A DNA stretch of 64,000 nucleotides from assembly GCA_963727895.1 (NCBI GenBank), contig CAVSHT010000009.1, positions 160,001 to 224,000 of the forward strand, given 5' to 3'. Shown piece after piece: positions 365-20,800 of this stretch (position 1 is its first letter; each line of letters opens with the position of its first letter). The notes beneath the pieces are model-generated. The model saw only the letters and a list, made by a program, of their open reading frames with translations, had not been told where the DNA came from and made no database searches. Made by a program: the position numbers and the translations under genes. Source of the stretch: an uncultured Methanosarcinaceae archaeon. Its GTDB lineage: Archaea; Halobacteriota; Methanosarcinia; Methanosarcinales; Methanosarcinaceae.

Positions 365-406
365 TGGAAGCAGATAAGTGAGCTACTGCAACTAATTAGC
401 CGTTGC

Positions 407-1042: not shown

Positions 1043-1077
<35 letters not shown>

Positions 1078-3463: not shown

Positions 3464-3544
3464 AGAAAGAGAATTTCATAGTCTATTAGAATTTACAGAA
3501 TTTTCGAGACACTGCCAAATTACTGAAAATGCACTATAAAAATA

Positions 3545-4284
3545 GGAATTGTTACTTAACTATATCTAGTTATTTATTTCTGTATTTCATCAATAGAATA
3601 ACCGAGTACTTTAGCATTTCAAGACTCTTCGTATAACACTTTGTCTTTCTTCTCAACCTTGCCAGAAAGTGCCTCAATATGCTGTTATATCCTTCAACAG
3701 TATACGTTTTTGTTTTTGATTGAGTATGGATCTTTTCTGGAAGAAACTCTGCATATGCTCTCCAGTGATCTGTCATTACTTCTCCAATGTATTTTTTCTT
3801 CACTTTTTCCCAGAGTAGTTTTCCAGTTTCTGTTCCTCTGCTACCAAAAGAGCAGTTGATGAACTTTTTCCCAACTCTATCAACAGCAATCCAGATCCAG
3901 CAATATTTTTTTTGTTACCGATGTAAGTGTGCATCTCATCCATTTCAACAATAGATATCTCATTTTCGCTTTTTAGAGCCTCCAACTCCTTACCAAATTT
4001 CTTGATCCATTTTTGGACAGAAACATGACTCACCCCTAAAAACCGCCCTATTGAGTGAAAGCCCAATCCTTCAAGATAGAGTTGTAAAGCCTGTTTTTTG
4101 ACAGAAGTGGAAAAAGCAGTTGATTTTAGCTCTACTGTATAGTTATATCCACAATCATGGCATTTGTAGCGTTGACGACCACCAACTATACCATTCTTTT
4201 TGTGACTGGAACTATTGCATCTGGGGCAGTTCATGAAGAAATAGAGGTTCTCATAATAAATAACTATAGTTAATTAGCAAAGCC
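3545..4284 (-). mobile_element. IS1-family element, 740 bp, InsA 3800-4234 / InsB 3570-3803 with slippery A-run
   Basis: InsA Zn-finger CPRC..CHDC + HTH; InsB TDHW..Y..VEGYNS..RHFLARL; imperfect TIRs; 8-bp TSD TAAAAATA (3537-3544, 4285-4292). Confidence 0.95.
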
Positions 4285-4294
4285 TAAAAATATA

Positions 4295-4954
4295 GTGGAA
4301 AATGGCTTCAATTCCGCCTTTCCTGTAATCATTTGGAATAATGCCCTTATCGATGGGCATAATCGTTATCACATATGCCAAAAGCACAAAATTGAATTTG
4401 TATTTATCGAGCAGGACTTTGCTTCAAGATCTGCAGCTAAGATGTGGATTATTGAAAACCAACTTGGCAGGAGAAATATAAACAATATCATAAGAAATGA
4501 TTTGCTTGGTAGATGGTATAATGAAGATAAGAGGTCAAGAGGTAATCCTAACGGATTTGCTCAAATTAACCAATTCCGCAAAAATTGCGGAATTGGTGAT
4601 ACTGAGCCTGCAGACATAATAGTTAAACCTGCAGATATAATAGCTAAACAAGCAGGTGTAAGCTCAAGAACAGTAGAGTATGCAGCAAAGATAACAGAAG
4701 CAATAGACACAATCACTGCAAACACTGGAATTTCCAGAGCTACAATTCTGACTCGAAAAATCAATTACAAGCAGGAAGATTTAACAGACCTTGCAAAGCA
4801 TGACAAAGAATTTCAGCTCAGAGTAATGGAAAAAGTAAAATAAGACAGTGAAGACATTGGCTCTGCAATTATAAAAACTGAACGTGAAGACACTGCCAAA
4901 CAAATGGAAGAACTTGAAGCAAAAAGAAAGCAACTTCAAGATATAAAGAAGTAG
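4295..4954 (+). pseudogene. ParB/Srx-like N-terminal domain protein (viral/plasmid type), 5' end cut by IS1, internal TAA 4841-4843
   Basis: IIWNNALIDGHNRYHIC..WIIENQLGRRN motif, HTH (IAKQAGVSSRTV); frame resumes after TAA to TAG 4952-4954. Confidence 0.75.
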
Positions 4955-5457
4955 ATGGTAGGGTTTTAAGTCCCTATTCTCAAATCCCTACCTGCGATCC
5001 AACCCAAAGATTAAGAGGAAACCCTATTACTCTTAATCTACAAATTTATATTATCATGGTTATATATATCATAATTGATGTCAAAAATTGTGTCTAAGCA
5101 AAATATAATTTAATGTATTATATTTTAATGCCATTATATATTACAATATTATAAAATAATCATATAACATTAAAATTTTAAATTGAAAACGATTTTTGAT
5201 ATAATTTATTTAATATAGTTTATGCTATTAGTAGGTACCGGAGTTGGAAAACAAATGGGGTATTATGGGGTACCAATAAAATAAAAGAATCTCCTGGAGG
5301 TCGCTGATTCCTCTTCGAATTAATATATTTGGGGGAGCATAATATTTCGAAGAAACTGTATCGGGGGCAACAGTAAACACAGCACCTCCGGGCTTTCTTA
5401 CATTATATATTCTGAAAAATTATCCATTTAAATTTCAAAATTAAAGAGGTATTATTC

Positions 5458-5598
5458 ATGAAACATCTAAAAATATGCCCAAAATGTAATTCTAACCTGA
5501 AATTACATTCAGACGGTGTGACTCAGTATTGCAATGTTTGTAAGTACTGGACAAAAGCAGGTACTGCAAGACTTGACTCAATAATGATTTATGGATGA
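5458..5598 (+). CDS. small zinc-ribbon protein (46 aa)
   Basis: MKHLKICPKCNSNLKLHSDGVTQYCNVCKYW...; GAGG RBS upstream. Confidence 0.7.
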   Translation: MKHLKICPKCNSNLKLHSDGVTQYCNVCKYWTKAGTARLDSIMIYG

Positions 5599-5849
5599 AG
5601 AGCCTAAATGAAAAATACAAAAAATTTTTAAAATTTGGATCTATTCTCCTACATTTTTGCTTTCTGACAGTTTCTAACTTTTTATCCTTCAAGAATTAAC
5701 TACATGCAGGTAATAATAATCAGGTGGAATTTTCTGACTGTTTCAGCTGGCAGTGAGGCTGCTGTGAGGTTTGGAGTAAGCGCGTTCGTCTTCCATGAGA
5801 TATTTCATATTAATTACCCTCAAAAATTAAAAGAAGGGGAATGCACTAG

Positions 5850-5884
5850 GAAGCCACGAGGCCTTTAGCCTCGTGGTAGTTCAC
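5850..5884 (+). mobile_element. orphan IS200/IS605-type right end (hairpin + TAGTTCAC)
   Basis: GAAG-CCACGAGGC-CTTTA-GCCTCGTGG-TAGTTCAC, perfect 9-bp stem. Confidence 0.7.
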
Positions 5885-6042
5885 GAATTGCTGAACAATT
5901 CCATTAAACATACCTTTTTGGAAGATTCAAAAATAAGGATTTTCTATACCGTTGAATAAGCTTCAGCTTTTTAAACTAATACCATAATCTATGCATGTAT
6001 TGAAACTCATACAATATATTCAACACTACTAGGATTTTCACT

Positions 6043-6745
6043 GACGGTCATAACAGGTATGCTTTGTGCACTAAGAACAACATACCCTTTTAGGGTTGAG
6101 GCTAAAGAGTTTGAATCACGAAATGATGTTTGTATATGGATGCTCCAAAATCAATTCGTTCGACGTAATCTAGATAATTATACTAAAGGTAGTTTGAGCC
6201 TTATATTCGAGGAATATGTTGAGAAACAAGTTGCTGAACGAAAATCAAATGCTATTACACTGTCAAACAAATTACGCTCAGTAAAACTAGAAGAAAACTC
6301 AATTCCGCAGAAATCTGCGGAATTGGAGACTAAGCAGAGAAGAAGAGGAATCGAGACACGCGATGCTGTTGGTAAAGTTGCCGGTGGTCTCTCATGATAC
6401 AATCTACAAAGTAAAAGAAATCAAGTCTCAAACTCCTTCAGCGCTCCTTCCTGAATTGGAGCGTTTAATAATTCCACATGCAGTAAGCATAAATCAAGCT
6501 CATAAATTTGTCCGTGCAATAAAAGCAATTCAAGGAAAAGTACCTGACAAGGTCACAGTTGCAAATAAAATTCTTAATGAGTTCAATCAGAATCCTTCTG
6601 TTTCCCTTGAAAGTAAGACAAAAGACGTAATACGTGAAACTCAGCGTGCAGAAAGAGATAGACAGTTAAGAGAAGCTGAAGAAAAAAGAAAGCAGCTTGA
6701 AGAAGAAGCAAGGCTAAACCGTGAAAAAAGAAATCTCTTAGTTTC
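6043..6745 (+). pseudogene. second ParB-like paralog, 5'-truncated, two frameshifts
   Basis: DGHNRYALC at 6043, WMLQNQFVRRNL, HTH (VGKVAG-VSHDTIYKVK), coiled-coil EKRKQLEE matching paralog 1; shifts near 6088 and 6390. Confidence 0.7.
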
Positions 6746-6746
6746 T

Positions 6747-7073
6747 TTACCATTTCCAATATCCAAACCAACGTATATTTTTAGTGTTAGCCTCCTCTAA
6801 ATTACGAACAAAAAGATCAAATCCTTTTATAAAACATATTGAAGTAACAATTATATTAACTCTTAAATCATTTTCTACATACATCAACCCCATCGAAAAA
6901 TACCATATAGATTTAAATAAGTCAGTACTAAAATCTTTTTTCCATATGTATGCAAGAATTCTTATAATAATGAAAGCAACTGCAGAAAAAGGAATAAACG
7001 CAAAATCTAAATATTTTATAATGTTTCCAGCAAATAACAACCAAATAGAAAGATTCTCAAACATATTCACCAA
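6747..7073 (-). CDS. hypothetical membrane protein
   Basis: 108 aa, about three hydrophobic segments. Confidence 0.55.
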   Translation of the reverse strand: MVNMFENLSIWLLFAGNIIKYLDFAFIPFSAVAFIIIRILAYIWKKDFSTDLFKSIWYFSMGLMYVENDLRVNIIVTSICFIKGFDLFVRNLEEANTKNIRWFGYWKW

Positions 7074-7188
7074 AATTTATACAAAGGTTTTTCTAATAAA
7101 ACTTTGCTCTTTCCGATTTATTAAAAGTCAAGTTTTATGAATTTACTTTGGAATCTTAGTACTAGTATACCTTACATCACCATTTAAT

Positions 7189-7665
7189 TCATTCTTTTTC
7201 AGTTAAAACTTCACTTATCTCTTTTTCAATGTCTGATCCTTTTCCATTGATTTGAAACCTTATAAACTCTTTATTTCCTTTTTTAAGGCTCACCTTACCT
7301 TCAGCAAATATTTTAATGCTTATCGTACCATCTATTTTTACATATTTAAGAGAAGTTTTTAGATAGTGTTGCAGTACGTGGGTAGCATAAGGAGTAAGCA
7401 GTACAACATTATCCCAGAAAAAATGAGTTTCTTGTACAGATGCACTTATATAGCATCTACGAGACTCTTGAGAACTACAATAATAATTAACTGATATATC
7501 TGGAAATTCTTTGATGAAAGACTGTCTATTAAATTGGTTATTAAAGATTCCTTCTTCTTCCTTGTGGGCTGGGATAATTAGAATATCCGACTTAAAATAT
7601 TCATCAATATTCTCAAATTTACAATACCCTTCTAATAGTTCATCTCTTGATACTTTTTCTGTCAC
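7189..7665 (-). CDS. hypothetical protein
   Basis: 158 aa, GTG start with AGGAG RBS. Confidence 0.7.
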   Translation of the reverse strand: MTEKVSRDELLEGYCKFENIDEYFKSDILIIPAHKEEEGIFNNQFNRQSFIKEFPDISVNYYCSSQESRRCYISASVQETHFFWDNVVLLTPYATHVLQHYLKTSLKYVKIDGTISIKIFAEGKVSLKKGNKEFIRFQINGKGSDIEKEISEVLTEKE

Positions 7666-7974: not shown

Positions 7975-8356
7975 AATCATGACAAATCGCATGACGAAGC
8001 CTTATTATCTGCAAATATACTATAAAAATTTAAGAATGGTAAAGAATAGGAATCATGATAAATCGCATTACAGAGCCTTTGTGCCGACCTTGTGCCAACT
8101 TTGTGCCGACCAAAAACATTAATGGTTCCGAGTGTGCCGACTTTGTTCTTTAAAACAATTTATAGTAGAAAAATTTTTTTCATAAATTAAATACACTGTG
8201 TGTGTCTTATAGAGAAGGGTTGTACAGAGGGGTTGGCACAAATGCGTTTTTCCGATACTTAAAGGCATGTTCCAACCCTAAAATTAGCTTTTTCGTAATG
8301 CACAGGCTTCTAGGTGGCAACTGTTGTCGGCACACCCGGCACAAAGTTGGCACAAA
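7975..8356. repeat. iteron-like repeat array, candidate replication origin
   Basis: 11-bp (T/C)TTGTGCC(G/A)AC x3 tandem 8078-8110 plus 8132; inverted copies at 8232, 8326, 8336, 8346; AT-rich spacer 8147-8195; separate 21-bp repeat at 7975 and 8051. Confidence 0.75.
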
Positions 8357-8446
8357 ACTGAAAAAAGGGATAATAGGTATAGTTAAAATAGAAACAAAGA
8401 AAAGGGTTTGTCAGGGCGATTCGCCGCCCCACAGTGAGTGATTTAA

Positions 8447-8704
8447 TTATTCTTGATTTCCGCCCTGAATTCCCTTCAAGGAACGGATTGCAAGAGCTAC
8501 GAATGTTACTAGGACGACTACACCTACGATATTAACACCATTATTCCAGACTGAAGCACCCGTTGTTGCATTTGCAAAGTCCCCAGATTTATTAACCGGC
8601 ATTGCCTGTGAAACTTTTTCACCAATACCCGGCCCTAAATAGAATATAATAACGAGCGTGAGAAGCCCAACACACATCCCTACAAGTTCGGTCATTGTAC
8701 TCAT
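8447..8704 (-). CDS. two-TM-helix protein, candidate spindle-shaped virus major capsid protein
   Basis: 85 aa; two hydrophobic helices, linker with NKS/NAT sequons, basic tail; AGGTGA RBS and TTTATATA box upstream. Confidence 0.6.
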   Translation of the reverse strand: MSTMTELVGMCVGLLTLVIIFYLGPGIGEKVSQAMPVNKSGDFANATTGASVWNNGVNIVGVVVLVTFVALAIRSLKGIQGGNQE

Positions 8705-8881
8705 CGTTTTTTCACCTACCTTAACTATATAATCTGTTTTCCCGAGTATATAAAGACATTTAAAAATAATAGTGTGCAGCAGGCTTTGTATGTGAGAATG
8801 GTATCAAAAAAATGAAAATTGAACCCTTCTAAGGCAATCGTTATTAGCAAACTTAAAAATAAGGTTAAAGGGTTTACCCCT

Positions 8882-9775
8882 TTATCCCAACATTGTCCCT
8901 AAACTACCTAAACGATTGTATATAGTTCGTTTTTTATTTATTTGACTAATTGACTTCTTTACGGGGATTTTCACCTCTTTCTTTTTCTTTTTCGCTGAAT
9001 TTTTCTCATCACCGTTTTTCCGCATCAGTAGATATGCTAAACTACTTTTTTGAGTATTAGCCATTCTTACCGAAGCGCTTTTATTGTTAACTGATCCCGT
9101 TGAGTTGCTTGCCCCTTTTGAACCTCTTGAATTCCCCTGCAGTGCAGCTGTGGAGAACTTAGGAAGTGTCAATACTGCTTTTGAAATTTGCTTTGATCCC
9201 TGTGAGCCTTGCTTACTACCGTTTCGATTTATACTGTTGTTAGAGTTTCCAGATTTTGAGTTTGGAGATGCAACAGTCTTTTTTTGTCGAAGACACAGTA
9301 ATTGAGCCCGATCCTAGCATAGTGCTTATATTTCCCAATTTATTGAATATGGTTCTATTTCTGTTTATTTCACTGCTAGTATGCTTCACATACTGCTGTG
9401 ATTTTTTCTTTTTGTTTGTATCTATTACGTCTTTACGCTTTTTTAGCATGTGTAGGAAGGCTATTGAGCTGTTTTTAGCTGAGTACTCCGGTAAGGATTG
9501 CCCGCTTTGTGAAGTTGTGCTTTTTTCTGTCACTGATTTTACACCCTGAGATATTTTTGGGATGTTTAAATTGCTTAATATTTTAGTAATACTTGAAACA
9601 TCCGATATCGTTTTAGGTGAAACTAGTGAGAGGCTTTTGCTTGACTTTGTTCCAGCGGACGCTGAGTTTAACTTTTTACCCGCAGTTGATGCTATTGCAC
9701 TCCTGCTAGATCCTGAACGTTTTACTGCCCCCTTTGAAGAACCTAGCATATTAGGTTGATATTGAGTTGCTTTTT
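8882..9775 (-). pseudogene. C-terminal part of giant Ser/Lys-rich protein (two basic repeat modules)
   Basis: ORFs 9240-9749 and 8882-9172 join via one frameshift in T-run 9279-9285. Confidence 0.65.
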
Positions 9776-10745
9776 TGATCCAAAATCATCACTATATCTC
9801 TTGTTCACGCTTTTCAATTGATGAAACACACAAAAAGAATGAACCACTTCAGGAAAGACGCTTTTTACAGCTCCAATGATTGCTTTATCTTCATCAGAAA
9901 CGATTTTTTGTATTTTGCCTTCTGGAAATCGGTTTTTTATTCGTAGGATAAGAGAAATTAGAGCTTCAATTGTTGGTAACCTGTCAGTTACCTCAAAATC
10001 CAAAATTACCTTTTCTTTTGTAGCGATAACGTAAACGGATTGATATCGCATCTTTTTCCATTTTTTTAATGTAATCTCTCGTCCTATCAGAGTCTCAAAC
10101 TTCTTTTTCCATCCTTTCTTGACCCGATCTCCATCAATATACAAAGTTCCATCAAAATCAGGATTTTGATATAAAAGTTCTTGCTTAGAAAATACAGATT
10201 GTTTTTGCTCATGCAACCATAATGAAGAGGCACAAGGAGCTCTGCCGCATATATCAGTCAAACCTTCTGTATATGTTTCGCCTACCCTACAGGAATTGTG
10301 AAGACTGCATCTGCTATCGTATCTGACAAGCATTTGTTTGTCATAGAACTCATCACTGTAATTTGCGGATCCAGAAACACCAACGATCTGATCATGAAAA
10401 TGCTTTTTACAAGTAGGACAAATCCAGTATGTAGTATTGCAAGTTATGGTGCCATAACTTGTGAGAATTGAACGAGTATAGTGAGAGTTCACATTTAATT
10501 TAGCGCCACAAAAATCACAATGAGTAGGAGATATTAAAGAGAACAGAGAATGAAAGCGATTTTCAACTAGCAATTTCGGCAAAGGAATTAATACATTGCC
10601 TTCAAGTATCGTTTTTACCATTGAATTCTCGATTGATTTATTTCCTCTTCCCATTAAAACGAATTTATCTCAATGAAATTAAAATTTTATTGTTTTGCAC
10701 GATTGAGAAAAAAGAGGTAGACCAGAAAATAATAAAAAGTCTCTA
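9743..10745 (-). mobile_element. truncated DDE transposase (IS256/ISH6/ISNCY-like), CDS 9743-10654
   Basis: Zn-finger CDFC..CPTC, LYIDG, IVSDEDKAIIGAVKSVFP..CVFH; C-terminus and right end missing; ends approximate. Confidence 0.8.
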
Positions 10746-13700
10746 ATCTAGAGACCTCATTTTCAGCATTTTGTGCAGCCCTGTCACGTAAAGATCCGTT
10801 TGGAGCAGTAGCAGCCGAACTGATTTCACCTGCATTACTAATAATTTCATCAAAACCTTTTTTATTCCCCTGATCTTCATAAATAAACTCTTTTTCTCCT
10901 TCGGTTGTCACTCCCACAAGTTTATTAAGTTCTGCTTTAGTCGGAAGTCTATCATTTGTCACAATGAACTCAGCAACTGGGGAATACGCTTTTGATTGTG
11001 TGTTATCTATTATGTTAGGATACTTTTCTGCTACCGCTTTTGTGTAACTTACCACATCTGCAGCTTTACCCGTGCCTTTAATTACTTTGTTCGATGTTCC
11101 GATCTCTACTAGGTCACGAACATCTTTCACCCTGCCTGCGTGAGCAACTTCCACAGACTTTCCACCTTTAAGGAAAGTACTTCCAGCATATTTACGGGCA
11201 GCCTGTTCCTGTAATTTCATTAATTTTACGCCGTCGACTTTCAGCGATTTCAACTCGCCAAAGTTGTAAGCGATACCTTCCTGTTTTTGCCATCCCTGCT
11301 TAAGCTAGTCTTGTGTTTCTGCTATGTCCAAGAGGCTTGACTTTGCGTTATGGTTAAAGACTTCAACTCCTTTTTCCCAGTTCCCATTTACTTTAAAGGC
11401 TATTTTAGGCTCATTGGTGCCTTTATTTTCTACTTTGAAATCCTTGCCTTCTGAAAACCCTTTTTTAGTGGCAGCTGTAGCAAATTTCTGTATATATGCT
11501 GTTGGATTATCAACGTAGATTTCGAGATCTCCGGGGGTACGAGTCAAGTATTTTTCCATTTGCAATTTCTGCGCATTGGAACCCGCAACTTGAATTTTAT
11601 AATCAGTTCCACCTTTTAGAGACCTAACTGCACTTTTTATGCCTGAATCTTTCCCGTATGACTGGATAGACTCTGTTAATGCCGCTCGCATTTTTGTAGG
11701 CACATCAGTACTTAGTATAGAGAATTTCTCAGGATTTACAACTGTATTTTTAGCATTGTAGGCAGCGGTTGCAACACGTTTACCGGCTGCATAATATGTT
11801 TTATCCGCGTCACTGAGTACATCGGATACATACCTATTCAGAATCTTTTCTCCTGTTTTATCGTAGGCCTGAACTGAGCATTCAACTTTTACCTGTTTAC
11901 TTGTTTTTCCCAGTTTATTCAGCTCATTTATCGCATCCACATTTATGTAAGATTTTAGAGTTTCAGCGTTTGGAGCAACGCGACCAAGATGCAACCCGCT
12001 TTTACTGTCAGATGAAACAGTATTTAAGAAAGTTGTACCTTGATGTAGATTTCTAGTGTTTCCGCTTGATCCCAGTGAGGTCTCTTTCAAATCACCCGAT
12101 TTTAGCCCGGGGGTTAATAAGTACGGGTTTTTTGTTTCAAAAGCTTCAGCACCTTTTCCGAAGGCTTTTAATCCTACAGCTAGGGAAGCCACAACATCTA
12201 AGTCTTTTTCAATGTCAGTAAACATGTTAGTGTATTTAGCTGACGATGCTATCATGTCTACGCCCATCACGGCACCCGGTGCAGCTCCAACTGCTTTGGC
12301 TGCATAAGGTACAATTGGCTATCTTAGCACTGCTTTCAGCAACTGGCTTCAAAGCTTTAAGCGTTGCAGCGGATAAACCAAGTTCTGCACCTTTTAAAGC
12401 GGCTCCGCCTATGGCAGACTCTGCAACAAGAACACCAACGTCAGCGGCTGCGTTCAATGGTTGATTTTTAGCATAGTTATACTTGTTTACCTCCCAGTTG
12501 CGAATAGCTGAAAGCCGTGAGTCACTGTCAACTGTTTTTTCCCACTTGTTCATTACACTGTTTCCTAGTGCTTTTCTTAACGCTGAGTTTCCAGCTGTTT
12601 GAACTGTGCTTACATTAGGGATATATTTTGATACTGCTTTATTTGAAGCATCTACTGCAGCAGCGGCCCTTTTATAGCTAAAAGTATCTATAAATTTTGT
12701 ATTTAGCTTTGCGGAGGCTGCTCCAAGTCCGCCATTTTTAATCTCAGCATTATACAGAGCTAAATCAGCCGCTGCTTGTATTTCGGCTGCTTTCTGAGCG
12801 ACTGTTTTAAACGATTGAAGATCTGTAAATGTTGCTTTTTCACCTGTAAGGGTGGAATATCCATTTTTCGCCGTTGCGGTCATCGGGGATACTACTCCGT
12901 AGTTTAGCAACTTTGCAGTAGCCTGCTTTTCCTTTTCCTCCTGAGCCTGCTTTACTTTTTGAATTGCTCCATACTGTGATGCCGTCTTTGAAACTGCTGT
13001 AAGCTTACCGGTTTTATCGGTTCTTAGTACTCTTACCTCTGATTCTCCTGTGCTTGCAGCTCCGTTTGTTTGAATCTGGTGTATAACCCTGTTATTTTTG
13101 CCCACAACGTCTTTAAAAGCCGCATTTAGCTTTTTTGCTGTTTCTGCTTCGATTTTTGCTGCTGCTACTGCCGCAGTGTACCCCGCATTTGAAGTAGCAG
13201 CTTTTGCTCTACCACCTACGGTGGCACCTGTCAGGTATTGTTGAGTTGTAGTTTTTCCCTTTGCAATCATTGCCTTATAGTCGGCTAAATTTTGAGATTT
13301 TTCCGCAACGGAGGAACCATATATTGTTTTAGCAACCTTTGAGTTAGGATTTGAGGCCCCATTTTATTCAATATCAGCTGTCCTGATTAAGGGAGAGGAT
13401 TCCTTTATCACACTAGCATGATTGGAAGTAACTTGTTTCGCTAGTTTGTTCAGATTCTCAGAAGTGGCTTTTGCAGTCGAACAGGTACCAGCCTGCAATT
13501 TCTTTGCTTGTGCAGATATGACTTTGGGAGCTACAGCTTTAACCGCCTGTGTCGTTGCGGTTAATTTTGTTGCGAGTTTTGCAGTAGCAGTTGAGATAAT
13601 TTTTGCGGGTGCTGTTTTTGAAGCTGCAACTGAACCTGAGGTTGCAACTCCCTTGGAGTAGTTTGAACTTTTCGTGTTAGAAGGATTGTTTATATTGTTT

Positions 13701-15055
13701 GCAACATGTGAGACAACCCCCTTTGATTCTAAAGCGGAGCTCTGGGCAAGTTCTTTTTGTATGTCTGCAATCTGTCCCTCTGCCTTAGCATTAGCTGCAT
13801 TGCGAGCAGCTGTAACTGAGGCACTTTCTTTAGCAGCGTCCTCTAGATACACAGGCGGAGACTGTGTATTGGCAGGAGCTTCATAATACCATTTTATATA
13901 TGCAGGGTTGTAATGTTTGCCTGTGTTGTTTGAGGCTTCTCTTGCATTCCACTTGTTGAGTGTCTGCTGTTCTTGAGAATTGAGACTTCCAGAATAATAA
14001 TTTGAAGTTGTAGTATTTGCAGCTGCTGCACTCGCTGCTTTTACTGATTGTGCTTTTACAGTAGCGGTATATGCTTTTTCAATTGCAGTACTATAGGAAT
14101 CTATAGCGGACTGTGCTTCTTTCTGCGTTTTGTATGTGGTTGTTTTAGGCGCAGTTGCAGACACTCCATAAGCCTTTGCAGTCGCTGATAAGGATTTCAC
14201 AGAACTTGATATGTCGTATGTTGTAGTAGTGGTTGCAGTTGCAACTTTAGTAGAGACAGACCCCCCGCTCGAAGAGGTAGTTTTTGCAGAACTACTTGCG
14301 TTTGAGCTTAGTTTTTTATTAACCTCAGTTGTATAACTATCAATTATACTTTGAGCTTTCTTTGAGTCTGTAATTGTTGAGCCATAGATTTTAGGCTTGG
14401 ACACACTTAAACCAGCTGCTACAGCCTGTTTGTAAACACTTGCGAGAGCGGAATCTACGTCATAATACGAAGCGGTCTTAGCTGCCGCTGAAGCTGTGAC
14501 ATTTTTAGCCGCTGTTGCTGCCTTACTAGACTGACTAGATTGACTAGGTTGGCTGGCTTGTGAGGTTGTGGTATATTTTGCAGCAATTAGCTCATTTGCC
14601 TTTGAAACATACGAGTCGACTATGCCTTGAGCTACAGAAGCACTTTTTATGGATTTGCCATAAGAAGCCGGAATGGTTAAACTAACACCATATGCAGCAG
14701 CCTGTGCTTTAATAGATGCAAGTGCAGAATCAATATCATAATATGTATCAGAAACTGTAGATCCAGTACCACGTACTGCAGTGTGATTACTTGTTACATT
14801 TGAAGTTAATTTACTTTTTGATGTTAATGCAGCACTTTTTACAGCGTTTACAACAGTCTGTTTTTTTGCTGAAACTACTGAAGATGAGGACGAGGCAGTT
14901 GTAGATGATGTATTAGCGGCAAGCCGGGCATCGTTGGCAGCTTTAGCCTTTTGAACTTCAGCACCATTTGAACCGGTTACCACTTGAAGCGAGCCGTCTG
15001 CTGCTGTATATTTTAGAATAACCCCGCCACTTGGAGTTGAGCCATAAATTAACAT
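10746..15055 (-). pseudogene. N-terminal ~1430 codons of giant Ala/Ser/Thr/Lys-rich protein, in four ORF fragments
   Basis: 13364-15055 joins 12236-13270 across in-frame TAA; frameshift near 12315 into the 11305-12270 frame; in-frame TAG 11305-11307 joins 10687-11253. Confidence 0.75.
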
Positions 15056-15107
15056 AATTAGAACCCTCTTTTTGAATAGAGGGCATTTTAAGCCCTCATA
15101 GTTGTTT

Positions 15108-15392
15108 TTAAGCTTTCGTTACACGAACAGTTGCAGAAGGCAGCTGGGATTGTAAGTGTTGCTTTACAGCAGCAGCAGGCACATCAAGATTTTTTAAATA
15201 TGTAATTTTATGAGATATTACATACCCCTGCTGTGTTTTAACCGTTGCACCGAAAGTCCCTTTTTGAACCTTGGTTTTAATACGTTTTTTAGCAGCGGAG
15301 GCCTCTGCGAGAGACACAAAGGGGCCGAACTTCTGTTCAACAACTATACGTAATTTTTTAGAGGACGTTTTTTTCATTACCATGGTTGCCAT
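15108..15392 (-). CDS. basic hypothetical protein with SPOR-like GPFxSxAEA motif
   Basis: 94 aa, KFGPFVSLAEASAAKKRI. Confidence 0.65.
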   Translation of the reverse strand: MATMVMKKTSSKKLRIVVEQKFGPFVSLAEASAAKKRIKTKVQKGTFGATVKTQQGYVISHKITYLKNLDVPAAAVKQHLQSQLPSATVRVTKA

Positions 15393-15602
15393 TCCTGAGA
15401 CTAATATATAATTATATTATATAAAATATAATTAGTCTGTAATAATAGTTATGCAAGCAGAGTATATAAGTATTTCTGCAAGAAAAACAGGATTAGAAGA
15501 AATGAAAATTAAAAAAGGAAAATAGTAATAAATTGAAGGTTGCGCAGTAGTTTGTATTACAACTACCAAGCAACATTATAACCTAGAACTGTATCCAGAC
15601 TG

Positions 15603-16101
15603 TTATAATCTGGATTTCCATGGCGCAATGAGACAGGGGGTATAGGCGGAGCCTACCTTTAGGTCTACACGCTTGTCTGATTCTGTGCAATCGATGTAGA
15701 TTCTACCACGGTCTGTTGTGTCGAAGGCATTGCAGGCGTGACCAAAACCGCGACCAAGAGTGACTGCAACGAATCCGCAGGTTATAACCCGCAGCTTCTG
15801 CATGATTGTGTAGCATTTCGGCATAATCGGCACATTGAAACGAACTATTGTACAACATTTGATCTGTCGTGTCATTATCGACAAAATTGATTACCTGTTC
15901 ATAAGTAACGTATGTTGCATTTGGATTTTCAGTTAGGTTAATGTGGTGTCCATCTGCACCTAAATAATCCAACTTATGTACGTTGGCACTGTCTGAGGGG
16001 AAGAGATATGCGAAAGTTAACATTACTGCAAATACAGCAAATACAGCAAATGCAGCAAAAAAGCCTAAAATACAGACTTCTAGAATATCTTTAAAACCCA
16101 T
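15603..16101 (-). pseudogene. membrane-anchored papain/transglutaminase-like Cys protease, frameshift near 15785
   Basis: N-terminal TM; FQCADYAEMLHNHAEAAG then other frame GHACNAFDTTDRGRIYIDCT (Cys-His-Asp). Confidence 0.65.
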
Positions 16102-16122
16102 TATTTTACCCCCAGCTCCACT

Positions 16123-16638
16123 TTAGACTTCCAGTGTTATTTTTTCTTGCTTATTTTCGTATAATTTTCTATAATTTTGATCGAAACTTTTCACTAATCT
16201 TTTCGCAGTATAATGGCTTATTGATAATTTTTCGGCAATTACTTCGATATCAGTATTTTTCAGAGCCAGCCGAATGAAACGCTCTGCACGTTTACACAAA
16301 GCGTCACTTGCTCCTAATTTTATAATGTCTACCTTTGGAACGCCTAAAGAGATTTGTCTAATTACTTCACCCAGCCCAAGTTTTCGTGGTATTCCCTGAT
16401 GATCTGTTTTTTTCCAGTTTTCAATTTTACGGATGTGTCGCAAAAATGAGGCAACCCCTGTCGTAATTTCAGGGTGAGCCAGCGAAATTTCGTAAGCGCT
16501 CATATTTACAGGGCACTTAGAAAACTTTATAATTATTTCTGTTATTTCTTCTGGTGCTTTAATTTTTTCGAGTTCTGTACCGTTGCAGACCTGTTTATAT
16601 ATTTTTGATACCTTTTCTTCCTGCGTTTGATGATGCAC
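16123..16638 (-). CDS. putative HTH DNA-binding protein
   Basis: 171 aa; IEVIAEKLSISHYTAKRLV; GGGGGTAAAA RBS. Confidence 0.7.
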   Translation of the reverse strand: MHHQTQEEKVSKIYKQVCNGTELEKIKAPEEITEIIIKFSKCPVNMSAYEISLAHPEITTGVASFLRHIRKIENWKKTDHQGIPRKLGLGEVIRQISLGVPKVDIIKLGASDALCKRAERFIRLALKNTDIEVIAEKLSISHYTAKRLVKSFDQNYRKLYENKQEKITLEV

Positions 16639-16659
16639 GTTTTTACCCCCCTAACGTTT

Positions 16660-16779
16660 TTAGTGTTCAATTACCATTTTCTGTTTACATCTTCTGCCGT
16701 AGCCTGCTTTTATTGATTTTTCATTCTTCAAGGGCTTGCCACACCTTTTGCAGGTACTTGATCTTTCTTCTTTTTCCAT
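16660..16779 (-). CDS. DUF6011-like zinc-finger protein (39 aa)
   Basis: MEKEERSSTCKRCGKPLKNEKSIKAGYGRRCKQKMVIEH; same RBS as neighbours. Confidence 0.7.
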   Translation of the reverse strand: MEKEERSSTCKRCGKPLKNEKSIKAGYGRRCKQKMVIEH

Positions 16780-16800
16780 AATTTTTACCCCCAACTTAAT

Positions 16801-17031
16801 TTAATTTTTTATTCCGTATTTTGCGTCTGCCAGACAATCTATTTCACATCGACTGTACACGAGACACATAGTGATGTACTTTACACTGTCGCGGTCATTG
16901 AATGCTGGATAAAGGTTAACGAAACTTGTTAAAATATCTGCATTATTTCCACTGTCAAATAGGCAACCGAGAAAGTTTTTATAATCAGCTAATTTTGATT
17001 TAATTTCATGGCGTTTTTCAACTGTAACCAT
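16801..17031 (-). CDS. hypothetical protein
   Basis: 76 aa; GGGGGATAAAAA RBS. Confidence 0.65.
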   Translation of the reverse strand: MVTVEKRHEIKSKLADYKNFLGCLFDSGNNADILTSFVNLYPAFNDRDSVKYITMCLVYSRCEIDCLADAKYGIKN

Positions 17032-17091
17032 CGTTTTTATCCCCCGTTTTTTGTTTTTTAAAGCTTAATATAGCCCGTTTTACAATTCAAT

Positions 17092-17304
17092 TTACTCTAC
17101 TTTCACATATCCAAACCCAAGTCCCTCAATTTCGATCTTTTTTATTTTACCCTCATACTCCATTTTTTCAAGCAATGCTTTAGCCGTATTTCTGCTACAG
17201 CCTACGCAATCTTTAATGACTACTATGGCGCGCGCCTTCTGCGTATCAAGACAACTTAGAACCATGTCTTCAGTATACTTTTTTTCGTATGTCAAAGATT
17301 TCAC
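17092..17304 (-). CDS. small winged-helix DNA-binding protein
   Basis: IKDCVGCSRNTAKALLEKMEYEGKIKKI; GAGGTG at start. Confidence 0.7.
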   Translation of the reverse strand: MKSLTYEKKYTEDMVLSCLDTQKARAIVVIKDCVGCSRNTAKALLEKMEYEGKIKKIEIEGLGFGYVKVE

Positions 17305-17553
17305 CTCTTTCTTAGTTATATATACGCTCTGAAAGTAGTTATAAGTTGCTATTGAGTGTCGTAACCGAACGTCATTAGCAGTTAATTAATAATATAATAA
17401 TATTAAAGTGGTATCAAAAGAAAAGCAAACATTAGCTCAGAAACAAACTGAAAAAATAATTGAACGCAAATATAAAACCATAATATTTAACTATAAATAA
17501 CAAAATAGTACTATTAATAACATGAGTTTAAAAATATAAAAAGAGGTTAAAAT

Positions 17554-17697
17554 ATGGATGCGGTATGCGAGGCTGAATTAACAATAATGAGAACAGAAAT
17601 CAGCGACTTGAAAAAACAAATTAAAGGATTGAAGGAAGAAATGGAAAGAAAAGTAGATATTGACGATTTATTAGATGCCTTAGATATAAAAGAATAA
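17554..17697 (+). CDS. small coiled-coil protein (47 aa)
   Basis: MDAVCEAELTIMRTEISDLKKQIKGLKEEMERKVDIDDLLDALDIKE; GAGG RBS. Confidence 0.6.
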   Translation: MDAVCEAELTIMRTEISDLKKQIKGLKEEMERKVDIDDLLDALDIKE

Positions 17698-17929
17698 GAT
17701 AAATGAAACGTAAATCTGGTTTATCCGTGACCTGCCTCGATATATAGTTCTGTGATAATTGATTATTAATCTCCATTCAGCCTGAAAATTTCCTCGTGAC
17801 CACGCTAATTTCAAAAACTTCTCGGTAAAAGGTGGATATTTGTCCATCCTATGAATGAAATACTTAAAATGAACATATACTCATTGAAAAAATGAAAAGG
17901 AAAGGATTGAAATAAAGAATGGATCAAAA

Positions 17930-18184
17930 TTATCTGCGCTTTACTGTTTTCTGTGCTGATTTTTGTGCTGATTTTTGAGTAGCTTTTTGTGCTGCACGCT
18001 CAGCTTTTACCTTTGATGCCTTCTTTGCGCCTTGTTCTTTTTGTGATCTAGTTTTATCAAAAATCGAGGTCTTTTCCGATGACGGGGTTCTCATTTTCTT
18101 TCTATTTGTATCATCCCTAGCTTTTTTAGATTTCTTTTTGATTTCAGTTTCTTCTTTGCCTAAAATCTTTTTCAGTATGCCCAT
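17930..18184 (-). CDS. highly basic Lys-rich protein, putative nucleoprotein
   Basis: 84 aa, AQK(A/S) repeats at C-terminus. Confidence 0.65.
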   Translation of the reverse strand: MGILKKILGKEETEIKKKSKKARDDTNRKKMRTPSSEKTSIFDKTRSQKEQGAKKASKVKAERAAQKATQKSAQKSAQKTVKRR

Positions 18185-18463
18185 TTTCTAAACCTTCTTT
18201 GCTTCCTTATATACCTATTTTCATTAATTGGCGCATTTTCTAAGAACGTGTTTTAAAACTCATTCTCACAGAGTTTTATCTTATCTAGTCTTCTAATTCT
18301 TTTTCTTATCATAGCAGCACAAGTTAAAGGTTTGCTTTTGTATACATGTCTCATAGATATTCAAACATCCCTACAACTAAAAATATGAGAAGTTATATAG
18401 ACAAGTTTTACTATAAATCTCAATTGCAACGATAAAACGTAACGAAGTTAAAAAGGGGGGGAT

Positions 18464-18674
18464 ATGCGTAACAACTTGTGAATTCTGTGGAGAAGGTATA
18501 ATATCATTGCCTTTCGAATGTCACAGATGTGGTAAGACTTTCTGCACTGATCATAGACTACCTGAGAAACACAATTGCTCATATGGTTGTCCAATACAGA
18601 GACCGTCTAATCCACTATATGTGAAGAAAAAGACTCCTGAAGAGAGTAAGAGAGTCTATTTTTTACCTAGATAA
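18464..18674 (+). pseudogene. AN1-type zinc-finger protein, +1 base right after ATG
   Basis: CEFCGEGIISLPFECHRCGKTFCTDHRLPEKHNC in frame from 18468. Confidence 0.7.
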
Positions 18675-18732
18675 GGAGAGCAGAATGAAGAAAAACAATC
18701 TATTTGATTGAATCTATTAAGGTTGATGTTTT

Positions 18733-19302
18733 ATGGGTGTACAGTTCGACAGTAGAGGAAAAATAAAGAACTACAACTATAATGGCACATGTGTATTATT
18801 GGATGAACCATGTTTTAAGCATGGAGTTGACTGTAGCCCTTGCACACGCATACAGGAACCAAAACACAAATCAATTGAAGCTCCTATACCTCATGTTGTG
18901 GAAGTTATAAAGACACCTGTGTCTGAGCCAATTTCAATTCAAGAACCCTTAATCGAGCCAATAAATAAAATAGGAACTGTAAAATTTGAATCAATTCCTA
19001 AAATCATAAGTAATGAAGATCCAACTAAAATTATCGCACCCGAAGTCAAAAAAGAACGGTTTAATTATGAATTAACTTTCAAACGATCTCAAAGGTCTAT
19101 TACAAATAATTCAACTTCAGTTCTAACAAAAAAGAAAAACTTATGGGCTAGATTAACAGGTTTTATAAAATCAATTTTCAAGCCAAGAAACAAGAAGCCT
19201 TATGATCAGAAACCAAAGCAATCACCTAAGAGGAGTGGCAAGATATACGTTTGGAAAAATCGTAAAGAGGGATTTGGAAAGAAAAGAGTAAGGAACCTAT
19301 AA
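18733..19302 (+). CDS. hypothetical protein with N-terminal Cys cluster and basic C-terminus
   Basis: 189 aa ORF. Confidence 0.65.
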   Translation: MGVQFDSRGKIKNYNYNGTCVLLDEPCFKHGVDCSPCTRIQEPKHKSIEAPIPHVVEVIKTPVSEPISIQEPLIEPINKIGTVKFESIPKIISNEDPTKIIAPEVKKERFNYELTFKRSQRSITNNSTSVLTKKKNLWARLTGFIKSIFKPRNKKPYDQKPKQSPKRSGKIYVWKNRKEGFGKKRVRNL

Positions 19303-19758
19303 TTAGATTTATTTTATTGGTCGGTGAATTACTCCTGAAACACTCCTTCCTGAGTTGGAACGCCTGCTCCACCTATTCCCCTATTTTCTATTCTAGCCTA
19401 TTCTGTGCACTCAATATTTGCACTAAAAATCAATAGCCTGTGCGAGATTAGACTACATAGTATGATATACCTTTGAGTATAGTCAGTTACAGTTGACACT
19501 GTTGAAAAATACCGTAATCAGTAAACGTCATTATTTTGTGTCAGACACGATTGACACGAAGGAGTTAACATTTTCAAAAACAGTACGGCTTCCTTGTTAA
19601 CACAACAGAAAGCATTAAGTAAGTAAACGACTATATTATATAGTATAGATCTCATATGTTAAGCACCTGCTAAACTAAATGGTTCGGTTTGGTTGGTTCA
19701 CAATACACGGGTTTCGTGCGGGTAACACGGATCCCGTAATTCTTCTTTTCTCGTTGTT

Positions 19759-19908
19759 TCAAAGATTTTCATTAAATACGGCTTCTAATATTGAACATAT
19801 CAGTCCAGACTGTGACTCTCCAGTCATTGTCCTTTCTTGCTCTATTTTTTGATAGAGGTCATCATCTACATATGCTGTAACTTGGATTTTGTTACAATAT
19901 CATTTCAT
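19759..19908 (-). pseudogene. ribbon-helix-helix (CopG-like) regulator, TGA at codon 3
   Basis: MK*YCNKIQVTAYVDDDLYQKIEQERTMTGESQSGLICSILEAVFNENL; GGTG RBS. Confidence 0.6.
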
Positions 19909-20199
19909 AAAAACTGCACCTGTTGTCTGGTCGTGGCATAGATTAACCTGCCTATTCCATATCGTATATAGGTGCTAAAAGTATAAATAACTTTCGTATG
20001 TTATATAGCTTCGCTTAAATAAAAAAGAGCTAATAATGCAGAGTTCACTGTTTGCGCTACTATCCTATAGTACATATAAGTTTAAAAGCTTGTCGTTAAC
20101 CATTGAAGCAAGTTTACATGTTTATAAACCCTGCAAAAGGTGAAAAATCGTTTTTGTTAACCTTATGATAATATTATAAAATTCAAAACAGCACACTTC

Positions 20200-20800
20200 T
20201 CATAATTTTGAGCGCCCCCTCACCCTGACAGCCTTTTTTGTATTACTCTGTTCCTCCAAAGCTTGCATTTCCAATGGTGCTAACATTAATTTTTGGGTCT
20301 CTACAATTATTCCCAGTAAGTCTATTTTCCCCTTTAAAACCTCAATTTCATCTCGTTCAACTGATAAATGTGCCGCTTCTGCCCGCAAAATATCATTTTC
20401 ATTTTTAATATCTTTATATGCTGCACCCTCTGACACATCAAGTTCTTTTTGGATAGTGAGATAAGGTACAAATTTTTTATAATACTCCTTCAATCCATCA
20501 ACATCCGCTTGATAATAATGGTTTTGTGTAGCAGGCAAAGAGTGCCCCATAAACTCTTCGGCATGGAAAAAGTCACATCCGGCGTTCAACATAGCTGAAT
20601 TAAAATACTTCCGCATGGTATGAGATCGGATTAAACCATAATTTCCCTTCTGAGTTTTCTTACTCGCTTTTGCTGCTAGATCTTTAAAAAGTTGAATAAA
20701 ACCAAATCGGTTAAATACACGCTCTTTTTCGTCAAAAGTATTTAAAAAAGTACTTGCAACCTTGCGGCGACAAAAAAGATAACTTGAGTCGTCATAAATA
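20200..20800 (-). pseudogene. C-terminal half of tyrosine recombinase/integrase
   Basis: IRSHTMRKYFNS (HxxR), EEFMGH, NHYY, C-terminal coiled coil; frame closed upstream of ~20800. Confidence 0.85.

Follow-up and report, generated by a model that had tools for sequence, protein, structure and literature searches.

Between gpmI and yaaH, the Methanosarcina chromosome from which the 64-kb stretch analysed here (the window) is taken carries a clean insertion of 25,058 bp (G000:C9:155734-180791, corresponding to window positions -4266 to 20791). The comparison with related species that a first-pass annotation had proposed as a way of finding the empty site showed it to be uninterrupted in all four related Methanosarcina species examined, and alignment of both junctions with this site revealed the hexamer TCATAA at each end of the insertion, on the left at G000:C9:155728-155733 (4272-4267 bases before the window start) and on the right at 20792..20797. 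The boundaries originally given were 3470..20800; the right end of the insertion is placed exactly at 20791/20792, and its true left end lies 4.27 kb before the window begins. No att repeats had been recognised and long ones are indeed absent from the insertion ends, which share just these 6 bp. Equally, no housekeeping family is present in 3470-20800, as had been noted, the Pfam and PHROGs matches there being limited to pieces of IS1 and MULE-type transposases, the C-terminus of an integrase and weak regulators. Among the matches listed, the element core had no DNA match in 40 relatives.

The tyrosine-integrase remnant predicted at the right edge is a C-terminal fragment on the reverse strand (20203..20802), open throughout and missing approximately 230 N-terminal codons. 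It aligns by tblastn with residues 229-387 of a 418-aa integrase (genome G126) and residues 234-382 of a 451-aa integrase (genome G002), and matches PF00589 (E 3.5e-3), phrog_1 (E 1e-6) and the C-termini of XerC/XerA (E about 5e-6). The break in the gene, near codon 230, coincides exactly with the junction to host DNA, and homology begins within the repeated TCATAA, which suggests recombination at a secondary site within int; as no int(N) piece is found at the left end of the insertion, this account is incomplete.

Leftwards of the integrase, the region 17772..19302, to which other species have DNA matches of about 80%, contains a basic 84-aa gene (17930-18184, reverse strand) followed on the forward strand by a zf-AN1 microgene (18507-18674, E 2.9e-9) and a 189-aa ORF (18733-19302). 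Its 17772-18584 portion is multi-copy in the source genome, with 84-90% identical copies on contigs C11 and C4, and may therefore be cargo or a separate module. Next comes a reverse-strand group of small regulator-like genes that has no counterpart in related elements: a 70-aa protein with a weak wHTH match (17092-17304; phrog_18890, E 3.5e-4), a 76-aa protein (16801-17031), a 44-aa DUF6011 Zn-ribbon (16660-16794, E 1.3e-10) and a 171-aa protein (16123-16638). The regulatory microgenes of the first-pass annotation are accordingly recovered for the two Zn-fingers and, weakly, for the wHTH protein, while the RHH gene was not found.

The centre of the element, all on the reverse strand, is heavily damaged. 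At 15603..16101 lies a frameshifted homologue of a 158-aa membrane-anchored protein of relatives, of which residues 23-93 and 94-142 of the version in genome G159 are matched by tblastn in separate frames, with a break near 15780; the protein is also found in IMG/VR locus L042, and the window homologue has a weak match to DUF7262 (E 5e-3). The basic 94-aa protein that follows (15108..15392) is intact, and with the 84-aa gene at 17930-18184 accounts for the small very basic protein foreseen in the first reading. Its position directly upstream of the giant gene is conserved in G159 (99 aa), G002 (86 aa) and loci L041/L043, the G159 protein having a weak SPOR match (E 0.015) below the cut-off. 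The giant low-complexity gene itself, roughly 6 kb and rich in Ser/Thr/Ala/Lys, is present (8882..15055) but as a pseudogene rather than one open gene: it is collinear with a single 1987-aa ORF of G159, and a frame map places in it two in-frame stops (TAA at 13364-13366 and TAG at 11305-11307), two frameshifts (within 12239-12318 and at 9243-9313) and one insertion sequence. The latter is of MULE type (9771..10747, reverse strand; PF10551, E 2.6e-7), and the same genome has four further copies of it at 99% identity. The central domain of the giant gene has a GS...DxE motif, and its fold matches are Pol-beta-type nucleotidyltransferases (Z up to 6.9).

Downstream of the giant gene an intact 85-aa protein is encoded (8447..8704, reverse strand), for which AF2 predicts a hairpin of two helices (residues 2-34 and 49-81; pLDDT 79), both hydrophobic, and which is the previously proposed capsid-protein candidate. 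Just beyond it, at 8079..8355, the predicted iteron array was confirmed as a seven-copy cluster of TTGTGCC(G/A)AC, four direct and three inverted; a search of both strands of the whole window, allowing up to one mismatch, placed all seven matches within this interval. The cluster may possibly be an origin or operator. No ATPase or primase, and none of the genes that in relatives separate the capsid candidate from the ATPase, was found in the window, nor was an ATPase found anywhere in the assembly, which is 84% complete. The early view that the element is defective is thus borne out: with neither replication gene nor ATPase, with broken giant and 158-aa genes and with an integrase deprived of its N-terminal part, this copy cannot work.

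Left of approximately 8 kb, a 158-aa ORF (7189..7665, reverse strand), which may or may not belong to the element, has no match in Pfam, PHROGs or NCBIfam and no counterpart in related elements. On the forward strand, 4295..6800 holds two decayed copies of a multi-copy family together with a repeat at 4947-5681. Paralogy searches support the earlier description of these genes as paralogues (11 matches in the source genome, with members in 19/177 family genomes and none in G159 or G002) but not their ParB-like label, which derives from visual recognition of a DGHNR-type motif and has no Pfam or NCBIfam support (E<=0.1/0.01) even for an intact 399-aa paralogue situated 2.7 kb before the window. 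At 3535..4290 is an IS1-family element on the reverse strand with a broken transposase (PF03400, E 3.6e-10), one of 291 BLAST hits in the source genome, 203 of them of at least 700 bp. The remainder of the insertion within the window (1..3534), defined by paralogy and the junction alignment, is a mosaic of repeats including a PsiE paralogue (2355-2654) and a multi-copy repeat of roughly 200 bp (3259-3463). The 'ParB-like' genes, which the first reading had listed among the contents of the element, are, together with IS1 and the stretch to the left of ~8 kb, separate multi-copy modules with copies elsewhere in the genome, and lie outside the provirus family; the 25-kb island is a mosaic.

Fuller syntenic copies, for which a search had been advised, were found within the Methanosarcinaceae in Methanosarcina sp. 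UBA289 and UBA293 and two Methanolobus genomes, and in IMG/VR in three contigs; the family is patchily distributed in Methanosarcina and Methanolobus. G159 repeats the window order of 158-aa gene, basic protein, giant gene and two-helix gene, and its integrase is complete and accompanied by a primase-DUF927 protein and an ATPase; the same module is seen in the three IMG/VR contigs, in G114 and in Methanolobus sp. WCC5, where the element measures 13.7 kb. Fuller members have a tyrosine integrase at one end and encode two small proteins, one basic and one of 82-98 aa made up of two hydrophobic helices, as well as a Ser/Thr/Lys-rich protein that is large or giant and adhesin-like secreted proteins of large size. 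Their replication module is exchangeable and can be a UvrD-like helicase, a D5-type primase-helicase or a fusion of a DnaG-type primase with DUF927. Most fuller copies also encode an AAA+ ATPase from the family to which SSV1 B251 and His1 ORF16 belong; it is absent from the WCC5 element. Outside the window, 0.7-1.5 kb before its start, two small genes have counterparts in the G159 and G002 elements and probably belong to the element core.

These comparisons bear on whether the island is one decayed element at all, or an accretion site of unrelated mobile pieces, where the virus-like genes would at no time have made up a functional provirus. In favour of accretion, the genome has 291 IS1 hits, and three segments of the island (the left 3.7 kb, 4.3-6.8 kb and 17.8-18.6 kb) consist of multi-copy modules that also occur at other places in the genome without the capsid candidate; no relationship is evident between the two ends of the island, and since the left 3.7 kb is paralogous to two other loci they may come from different elements. 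Against it stand the clean insertion with one 6-bp repeat at each end, the order from 20.8 to 8.4 kb (integrase, small genes, 158-aa, basic, giant, capsid candidate), which is that of G159, and the two small genes near the far-left end with counterparts in the G159 and G002 elements, and we give this explanation very little weight.

The viral connection is drawn from the capsid candidate and the ATPase. Matches to the 85-aa protein are found in 12/177 family genomes (E<=0.01), seven of them, including the window, at E<2e-6. Pfam His1_capsid and VP1_VP3 were matched by none of five family members (E<=10) and none of 48 distant representatives (E<=0.01), Foldseek gave no match in BFVD at E<=0.001, and in hhalign the close family alone reached a probability of just 1.1 against His1 VP21 and 1.3 against SSV1 VP3. 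When extended to 48 sequences, however, the family aligned over 59 columns with the 21-sequence family of the His1 capsid protein at a probability of 84.4 (E 7e-6, score 33.2), exceeding all 201 controls: 100 column shuffles (at most 16.5), the reversed profile (22.1) and 100 shuffles preserving the helix-loop-helix layout (mean 14.1, sd 3.6, maximum 25.4). The accepted His1-SSV1 capsid pair scored 25.8 by the same method (probability 42.8), and the extended profile gave probabilities of 0.4-12.9 against SSV1 VP3 and its family. As this profile was built from HMMER matches to short hydrophobic proteins down to E 1e-3, it could have drifted; eight of the 48 representatives were left out of it. 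The earlier link from the capsid candidate to the spindle lineage is therefore upheld by the His1 profile comparison but not by the Pfam scans. The ATPases of all five relatives tested have as best match, over nearly their full length, phrog_5484 (E 1e-13 to 6e-5), which contains SSV1 B251 (E 5e-101) and His1 ORF16 (E 3e-62). In a tblastn search of 50,697 phage records, the sole match to the family ATPase was the ATPase of LSV-48N, a lemon-shaped virus of Haloferax (24% identity, E 2e-8).

The same genes could be assigned to a pleolipovirus-like virus of the pleomorphic, membrane-vesicle type, with the small membrane protein as VP3 and a large secreted protein as a VP4-like spike. The core gene set of pleolipoviruses is described in similar terms, combining a small membrane protein and an ATPase with large secreted proteins that are anchored at the C-terminus (PMC10599561), and unclassified pleolipovirus-like viruses are mentioned for methanogens (PMC12451623). 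However, the HRPV-1 ATPase (VP8) belongs to phrog_1979, not phrog_5484, and phrog_1979 was matched by none of the five ATPases (E<=0.05 for three proteins, E<=0.01 for two); the two-helix proteins do not match phrog_5900, which is HRPV-1 VP3, and align instead with the His1 capsid family, making this assignment improbable. Less easily set aside, although still unlikely, is the view that the family is not viral but an integrative plasmid or an island of surface modules. The two-helix and large secreted proteins would then be cargo with a role at the surface of the host cell, and the element would produce no virion but would spread in plasmid form or inside vesicles. This view would accord with the lack of capsid-family matches in profile libraries, with DnaG/DUF927, D5-type and UvrD modules as typical of archaeal integrative plasmids as of viruses, with the lack of an ATPase in the WCC5 element and with the CRISPR comparison advised earlier, in which none of 131 spacers from the genome's own array matched; ATPases of the phrog_5484 kind could also serve plasmids. 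Against it stand the His1 capsid alignment, the ATPase assignment in all five relatives tested, the order of capsid candidate, small genes and ATPase, which recalls SSV1 and His1, and the presence of three relatives in IMG/VR contigs. Conjugation genes, which with HK97 or DJR capsids had been named as evidence that would count against a spindle-shaped virus, were not seen among the relatives' proteins scanned, nor was either capsid type.

Among known systems, His1 virus (Halspiviridae) offers a capsid protein, VP21 (PF25665), of similar size with two hydrophobic helices, an ATPase in the same PHROG and large secreted, C-terminally anchored proteins encoded nearby. It differs in its linear genome with terminal repeats, protein-primed polymerase and lack of an integrase, the present family being integrated with tyrosine integrases and primase/helicase modules and escaping the Pfam His1_capsid model. 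SSV1 (Fuselloviridae), with its VP1/VP3 capsid proteins, basic protein VP2, C792, B251 ATPase and integrase, has in common a temperate, integrating lifestyle, the ATPase PHROG, a small capsid-type gene adjoining a basic protein gene, as in G002, and a large gene in the same block. VP1/VP3 nevertheless have no detectable similarity to the family, the hosts here are mesophilic methanogens, and integrated full copies keep intact integrases, unlike the SSV-type enzyme, described as split on integration (PMC4158269; PMC7253208). LSV-48N (PP151251) has a circular genome that encodes integrases, large proteins and a regulator of AbrB type, but resembles the family in one gene only and has a haloarchaeal host; its authors recognised no known capsid protein in it by sequence (PMC12714723). 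Methanosarcina spindle-shaped virus 1 (MSSV1; Eurekaviridae, PQ167755) and contig C1697 (Ngo et al., 2022), compared by description, are predicted spindle-shaped viruses assigned to Methanosarcina and recognised by a small capsid protein (PMC12451623; PMC9796341). MSSV1 is said to encode two copies of it where we see one per locus, and C1697 is described as encoding an SSV1-like capsid protein alongside a protein-primed polymerase, neither of which occurs in this family.

The fuller copies, the empty site, the ATPase PHROG and the capsid profile support the original proposal of a decaying integrated virus-like element, possibly spindle-shaped. We consider the core (~8.0-20.8 kb) to be a dead copy of a temperate spindle-virus-like element with a probability of roughly 0.6, short of proof that it is viral, the spindle assignment being deduced from sequence rather than from morphology. 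The family would then consist of viruses of the small spindle-shaped kind, in which the two-helix protein would be a membrane-derived capsid protein, the adhesins and giant protein may sit at the termini or take part in host recognition, and the ATPase may act in replication or morphogenesis. Recombination inside int would have locked the element into the chromosome, and IS1, the MULE-type insertion sequence and the multi-copy 'ParB-like' module may later have invaded or joined the island. Such elements would represent a type of virus, the spindle-shaped, that is barely known in methanogens.

The element lies within a clean insertion of 25,058 bp (C9:155734-180791, equivalent to window positions -4266 to 20791) that was delimited by aligning both junctions with four uninterrupted sites. 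In these four related species yaaH adjoins gpmI, beyond which lie a GHMP-like gene and FEN-1, while in the assembly containing the window (G000) the gpmI-side block stops at C9:155732, 4.27 kb ahead of the window start; the hexamer TCATAA flanks both ends of the insertion (window 20792 onward and G000:C9:155728-155733). The first-pass annotation had placed the element at 3470-20800. Because the junction alignment gives -4266 to 20791, its right edge stands and can now be stated exactly, but its left edge is wrong, the insertion beginning 4.27 kb before the window. The two island ends share no words of 11 nt or longer, the elements of genomes G159 (Methanosarcina sp. UBA289) and G126 show no att-type shared words of at least 12 nt within the ranges tried, and no tRNA adjoins either the island or the integrases of the relatives. 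The sole Rfam match in 1-30000 is a tRNA-Gln at 28294-28366, and an origin of the right boundary by inversion between this tRNA and the island was ruled out because the relatives keep the gpmI and yaaH flanks contiguous. To the right of the island lie ordinary genes, namely those for a yaaH-type transporter, UbiA, FilR1 and purH. Comparison of window 20792-29400 with the four related species also showed that the segment that starts on the gpmI side and extends across yaaH-purH as far as tRNA-Gln lies inverted relative to the gene at 28909-29211; an IS1 remnant (27339-27638) sits within this segment.

Gene content was surveyed by ORF listing and profile scans of window 1-30000. The scans found no housekeeping family within 3470-20800, as had been claimed; apart from the weak wHTH given below, their only matches there were fragments of an IS1 transposase at 3570-4234, a transposase of MULE type at 9743-10654 and a tyrosine-recombinase C-terminus (20200-20616). 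Of the regulatory microgenes named earlier, two of Zn-finger type are present (DUF6011, 16660-16794; zf-AN1, 18507-18674) and the wHTH is matched weakly (17092-17304), but no RHH gene was found. The proposed iteron array is well founded, since all seven matches to TTGTGCCRAC in the window fall within 8079-8355.

The copy in the window is extensively decayed. The gene for the 85-aa two-helix protein (8447-8704, minus strand), the capsid candidate, and that for a basic 94-aa protein are intact. The giant gene (15055-8882) described at first pass is indeed present, but instead of a single open gene it is broken by two in-frame stops (TAA at 13364 and TAG at 11305-11307, minus strand), two frameshifts, one of them within 12239-12318, and a MULE-type IS (9771-10747) of which four more genomic copies exist at 99% identity. 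TAG can be read as pyrrolysine in Methanosarcina, but plain decay is the more likely explanation of this codon because a TAA and frameshifts occur in the same gene. The gene for a 158-aa protein carries a frameshift near 15780. No primase, no ATPase and none of the genes that lie between the capsid candidate and the ATPase were found in the window, nor was the ATPase found in the whole G000 assembly, which is 84% complete. The far left of the island holds two small genes, an AbrB-like gene (45% identity to a UBA289 gene) and an 86-aa gene, with counterparts in the UBA289 and G002 elements, so the provirus may at one time have extended over the entire site. Two DNA metagenome runs from one study contain short contigs identical to scattered parts of 8000-17400, as well as the IS at other places; none of these contigs spans a break or the IS site, and among public runs no RNA dataset is listed as containing the sequence. 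The 131 spacers of the large CRISPR array at G000:C11:159846-169520 (132 repeats of ~37 nt) gave nothing longer than chance words of 17-21 nt against the island, the related loci or the rest of G000.

Fuller copies were recovered by the search for intact syntenic relatives that the annotation had called for, in UBA289, in two further genomes of the family (G002 and G114), in Methanolobus sp. WCC5 and in three IMG/VR contigs. The two-helix protein is rare, falling into nine clusters, its own included, among 5.8 billion proteins, and has matches in 12 of the 177 family genomes (E<=0.01). In UBA289 the gene order is that of the window (158-aa membrane-anchored protein, basic ~95-aa protein, giant protein, two-helix protein) with the giant gene unbroken as a single 1987-aa ORF. 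The element further encodes a complete integrase (PF00589, E 6e-23), a DnaG-type primase-DUF927 fusion protein of 1081 aa and a P-loop ATPase of 312 aa, and it has three small genes. A transglutaminase- or peptidase-like identity for the 158-aa protein, suggested by a C...H...D pattern read by eye, was dropped because a PDB sequence search of the UBA289 protein returned no meaningful match. G002, G114 and the three IMG/VR contigs have in common a block comprising the two-helix protein, about five small genes and the ATPase; the basic protein, the giant or large protein and ~800-aa secreted proteins with CarboxypepD_reg domains are likewise shared among them. In Methanolobus sp. WCC5 a compact version of 13.7 kb, at ~43.3-57.0 kb of the chromosome, is flanked by RFC and topoisomerase VI genes. 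It encodes an integrase, a UvrD-like helicase, the two-helix protein and two larger proteins, one of 724 aa and an adhesin-like one of 836 aa, but not the ATPase. The replication module varies among copies, being of DnaG/DUF927, D5 or UvrD type. Close-relative scans of IMG/VR with the 85-aa protein alone or with the UBA289 ATPase as query returned no loci, and among 50,697 phage records the two-helix protein had no tblastn match at E<=10.

Two observations on the related loci are recorded separately. A 9-kb contig of an 'uncultured Clostridia bacterium' MAG (L057, CALLZZ010000203.1) carries a two-helix gene that matches the query exactly as well (48% identity, E 2e-24) as the copy of Methanosarcina sp. 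UBA293 does; the probable explanation is mis-binning of a Methanosarcina or viral contig. In two independent relatives, IS200/IS605 insertions (TnpA and TnpB) lie directly beside the two-helix gene (L021:15674-17118 and the IMG/VR locus L041:7976-9529).

The integrase remnant reported at the right edge proved to be an open 200-codon frame aligning with the C-termini of two full integrases. Its homology to them starts at codon 229/234, inside the right junction hexamer (20792-20797), and covers their last ~160 residues, including the SHxMRK and YY stretches; Xer C-termini also match it (E ~5e-6). The C-terminal catalytic features of tyrosine recombinases (PF00589), the HxxR box and the tyrosine, are present, and the N-terminal half with its first catalytic Arg is missing. 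Fuselloviridae split their integrase into int(N) and int(C), one at each end of the provirus; here int(C) begins exactly at the right junction, but no int(N) piece occurs at the left end of the island (E<=10), and homologous integrases are whole while integrated in G002 and G126. The break could have arisen if the att core recombined with an att-like TCATAA lying within int, an event that would have removed the 5' half of the gene and anchored the element at its site. A full-length paralog of the window-remnant type is encoded elsewhere in the genome (G000:C5:202811-203980); across 411 residues it is 47% identical to the integrase of G002.

The multi-copy parts of the island, mapped by BLAST against its own genome, reveal a mosaic. 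The left 3.7 kb, which contains an intact 399-aa 'ParB-like' member, has paralogs on contigs C8 and C11, two decayed 'ParB-like' copies occupy 4286-6685, and 17772-18584 is repeated on C11 and C4. The 'ParB-like' family, with 11 matches in G000 and a presence in 19 of the 177 family genomes, is absent from the genomes holding the best copies of the virus-like module and is therefore a separate module. Its name (applied to 4295-4843 and 6059-6800) came from a motif read by eye and has no profile support, since neither the 182-aa copy nor the intact 399-aa paralog matches a ParB-type domain in Pfam (E<=0.1) or NCBIfam (E<=0.01). The IS1-type element (~750 bp; window 3535-4290) gives 291 BLAST hits in the 3.67-Mb assembly, of which 203 are at least 700 bp long and jointly make up 4.9% of it, with a longest open frame of 246 aa in any copy; this is a massive IS expansion. 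Other repeats were noted in passing. A ~200-bp repeat (3259-3463) with terminal inverted repeats (3263-3281 and 3445-3463) has at least eight more genomic copies (75-92% identity), is present in related species too, and looks like a MITE. The PsiE-family gene of the island (2341-2734) is 92.5% identical to G000:C8:118641-119040, a copy adjoining an IS1 copy, and is probably a passenger carried with the IS. A second island (G000:C11:137021-144934) encodes an integrase 78% identical to that of the UBA289 element and a protein homologous (40%) to the 527-aa protein found in the G002 element; it also contains 'ParB-like' copies and the basic-protein region, and lacks the capsid candidate and the giant gene.

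The case for a spindle-type virus turns on the two-helix protein and on the ATPase of the fuller copies. AF2 models the 85-aa protein as a hairpin of helices 2-34 and 49-81 (pLDDT 79), the size and layout expected of a spindle-virus capsid protein (~70-100 aa, two hydrophobic helices), and the two-hydrophobic-helix layout is kept in 13 close and 40 distant relatives. Direct searches were negative: hmmscan against PF25665 (His1_capsid) and PF06281 (VP1_VP3) matched none of five members at E<=10 and none of 48 distant representatives at E<=0.01, hhalign of the close family alone gave Prob ~1 against the His1 and SSV1 capsid proteins, and a PDB sequence search yielded nothing meaningful, only MurJ at E 1.4. 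A Foldseek search of BFVD with the model found nothing at E<=0.001 and is uninformative, since a fold as simple as a hairpin is unsuited to this test. Among 1.84 billion representatives, a profile search identified 48 distant two-helix relatives, of which 40 were aligned with eight close members to form an extended profile, truncated or two-stretch hits being left out (P0013, P0015, P0016, P0034, P0037, P0042, P0044 and P0053). In hhalign this profile gave Prob 72.7 against His1 VP21 and Prob 84.4 (E 7e-6, score 33.2) against a His1 capsid alignment of 21 sequences from the 27 homologs found. Control scores reached at most 16.5 for 100 column shuffles, 22.1 for the reversed profile and 25.4 for 100 layout-preserving shuffles, and the His1-SSV1 capsid pair scored 25.8 in the same set-up. 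Homology of the two-helix family with the His1-type capsid protein has moderate support, short of proof, from these profile comparisons. Against the SSV1 capsid family, represented by 28 of 89 homologs, the result was Prob 12.9 with a poor score; the SSV1 and His1 capsid proteins are themselves reportedly accepted homologs.

The ATPases of all five relatives tested match phrog_5484 over nearly its full length, and this family also takes in SSV1 B251 and His1 ORF16. An AAA+ ATPase of B251/His1 ORF16 type is thus a feature of the family but not of the window copy. In the phage collection, tblastn with the family ATPase matched only that of LSV-48N, a lemon-shaped virus of Haloferax. In Pleolipoviridae, the HRPV-1 VP8 ATPase falls in phrog_1979 and VP3 in phrog_5900, but the ATPases and two-helix proteins of the relatives match neither. 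In contrast to Halspiviridae, the elements of this family are integrated, and the replication proteins scanned in the relatives are DnaG-primase/DUF927, D5-type and UvrD-like, with no polymerase among them. Two capsid-protein copies are described for Methanosarcina spindle-shaped virus 1 of the Eurekaviridae, whereas tblastn finds one copy per locus here, a count that a divergent second copy could escape. It is most likely that the family belongs with the small spindle-shaped archaeal viruses.

The best-conserved stretch of the giant protein (UBA289 residues ~1095-1480) shows 34-48% identity among four copies, and its central domain carries a GS...DxE pattern (window 10690-12318, minus strand; L021:12287-13420). 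The AF2 model of this domain is poor (pLDDT 50.5) and confident only at residues ~150-250; that part aligns with Pol-beta-type nucleotidyltransferases, including Megavirus poly(A) synthase (Z 6.9), CCA-adding enzymes, ANT(2''), TENT5 and MenT, with all Z values <8 and not decisive. The ESM Atlas offers no more than a lead, its best score (0.77) falling to clusters of viral poly(A) polymerases. Fold matches to nucleotidyltransferases are unexpected in a Ser/Thr/Lys-rich, 'structural-looking' giant protein.

Taken together, we put at roughly 0.9 the probability that the locus holds an integrated mobile element of this family in a decayed state, and the fuller statement that it is viral and of spindle type is favoured less firmly. 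The original reading of a decaying virus-like element is supported, in that the locus is what remains of a dead temperate virus-like element, riddled with insertion sequences, within a 25-kb mosaic insertion, and the observations behind it are largely confirmed, save for the RHH gene, the ParB name and the left boundary. A broader proposal, tentative and in sum rather doubtful, is that the remnant and the fuller copies represent an undescribed temperate spindle-virus family of Methanosarcinaceae. Its members would be the elements of Methanosarcina sp. UBA289 and UBA293, Methanolobus sp. WCC5, another Methanolobus genome and the three IMG/VR contigs, and its traits a capsid protein of His1 type, an ATPase of SSV1/His1 type, replication modules that can be exchanged and a giant protein reaching ~2000 aa with a predicted Pol-beta-like nucleotidyltransferase domain; integrase-made recombination at a secondary TCATAA in its own int would have locked in the window copy. 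Such a family would be separate from both Eurekaviridae and contig C1697. C1697 is described as a Methanosarcina spindle-virus contig with a protein-primed polymerase (PMC9796341), and Methanosarcina spindle-shaped virus 1 (Eurekaviridae, PQ167755) is circular with two capsid-protein copies (PMC12451623); as presented there, Methanosarcina spindle-shaped viruses are so far known from metagenome contigs alone (PMC9796341; PMC12451623). Our literature search found no paper on such integrated copies in Methanosarcina or Methanolobus, and the tables of Medvedeva et al. (2023) may cover them.

The locus illustrates how a provirus of this kind decays in a genome overrun by a single insertion sequence. 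Methanosarcina and Methanolobus are important producers of methane, and to our knowledge very few of their viruses are known. A dead locus has here led to full integrated copies, one of them in the complete genome of a named Methanolobus strain, and because such copies are found in genomes, the existence of inducible spindle-shaped viruses in Methanosarcinaceae is directly testable.
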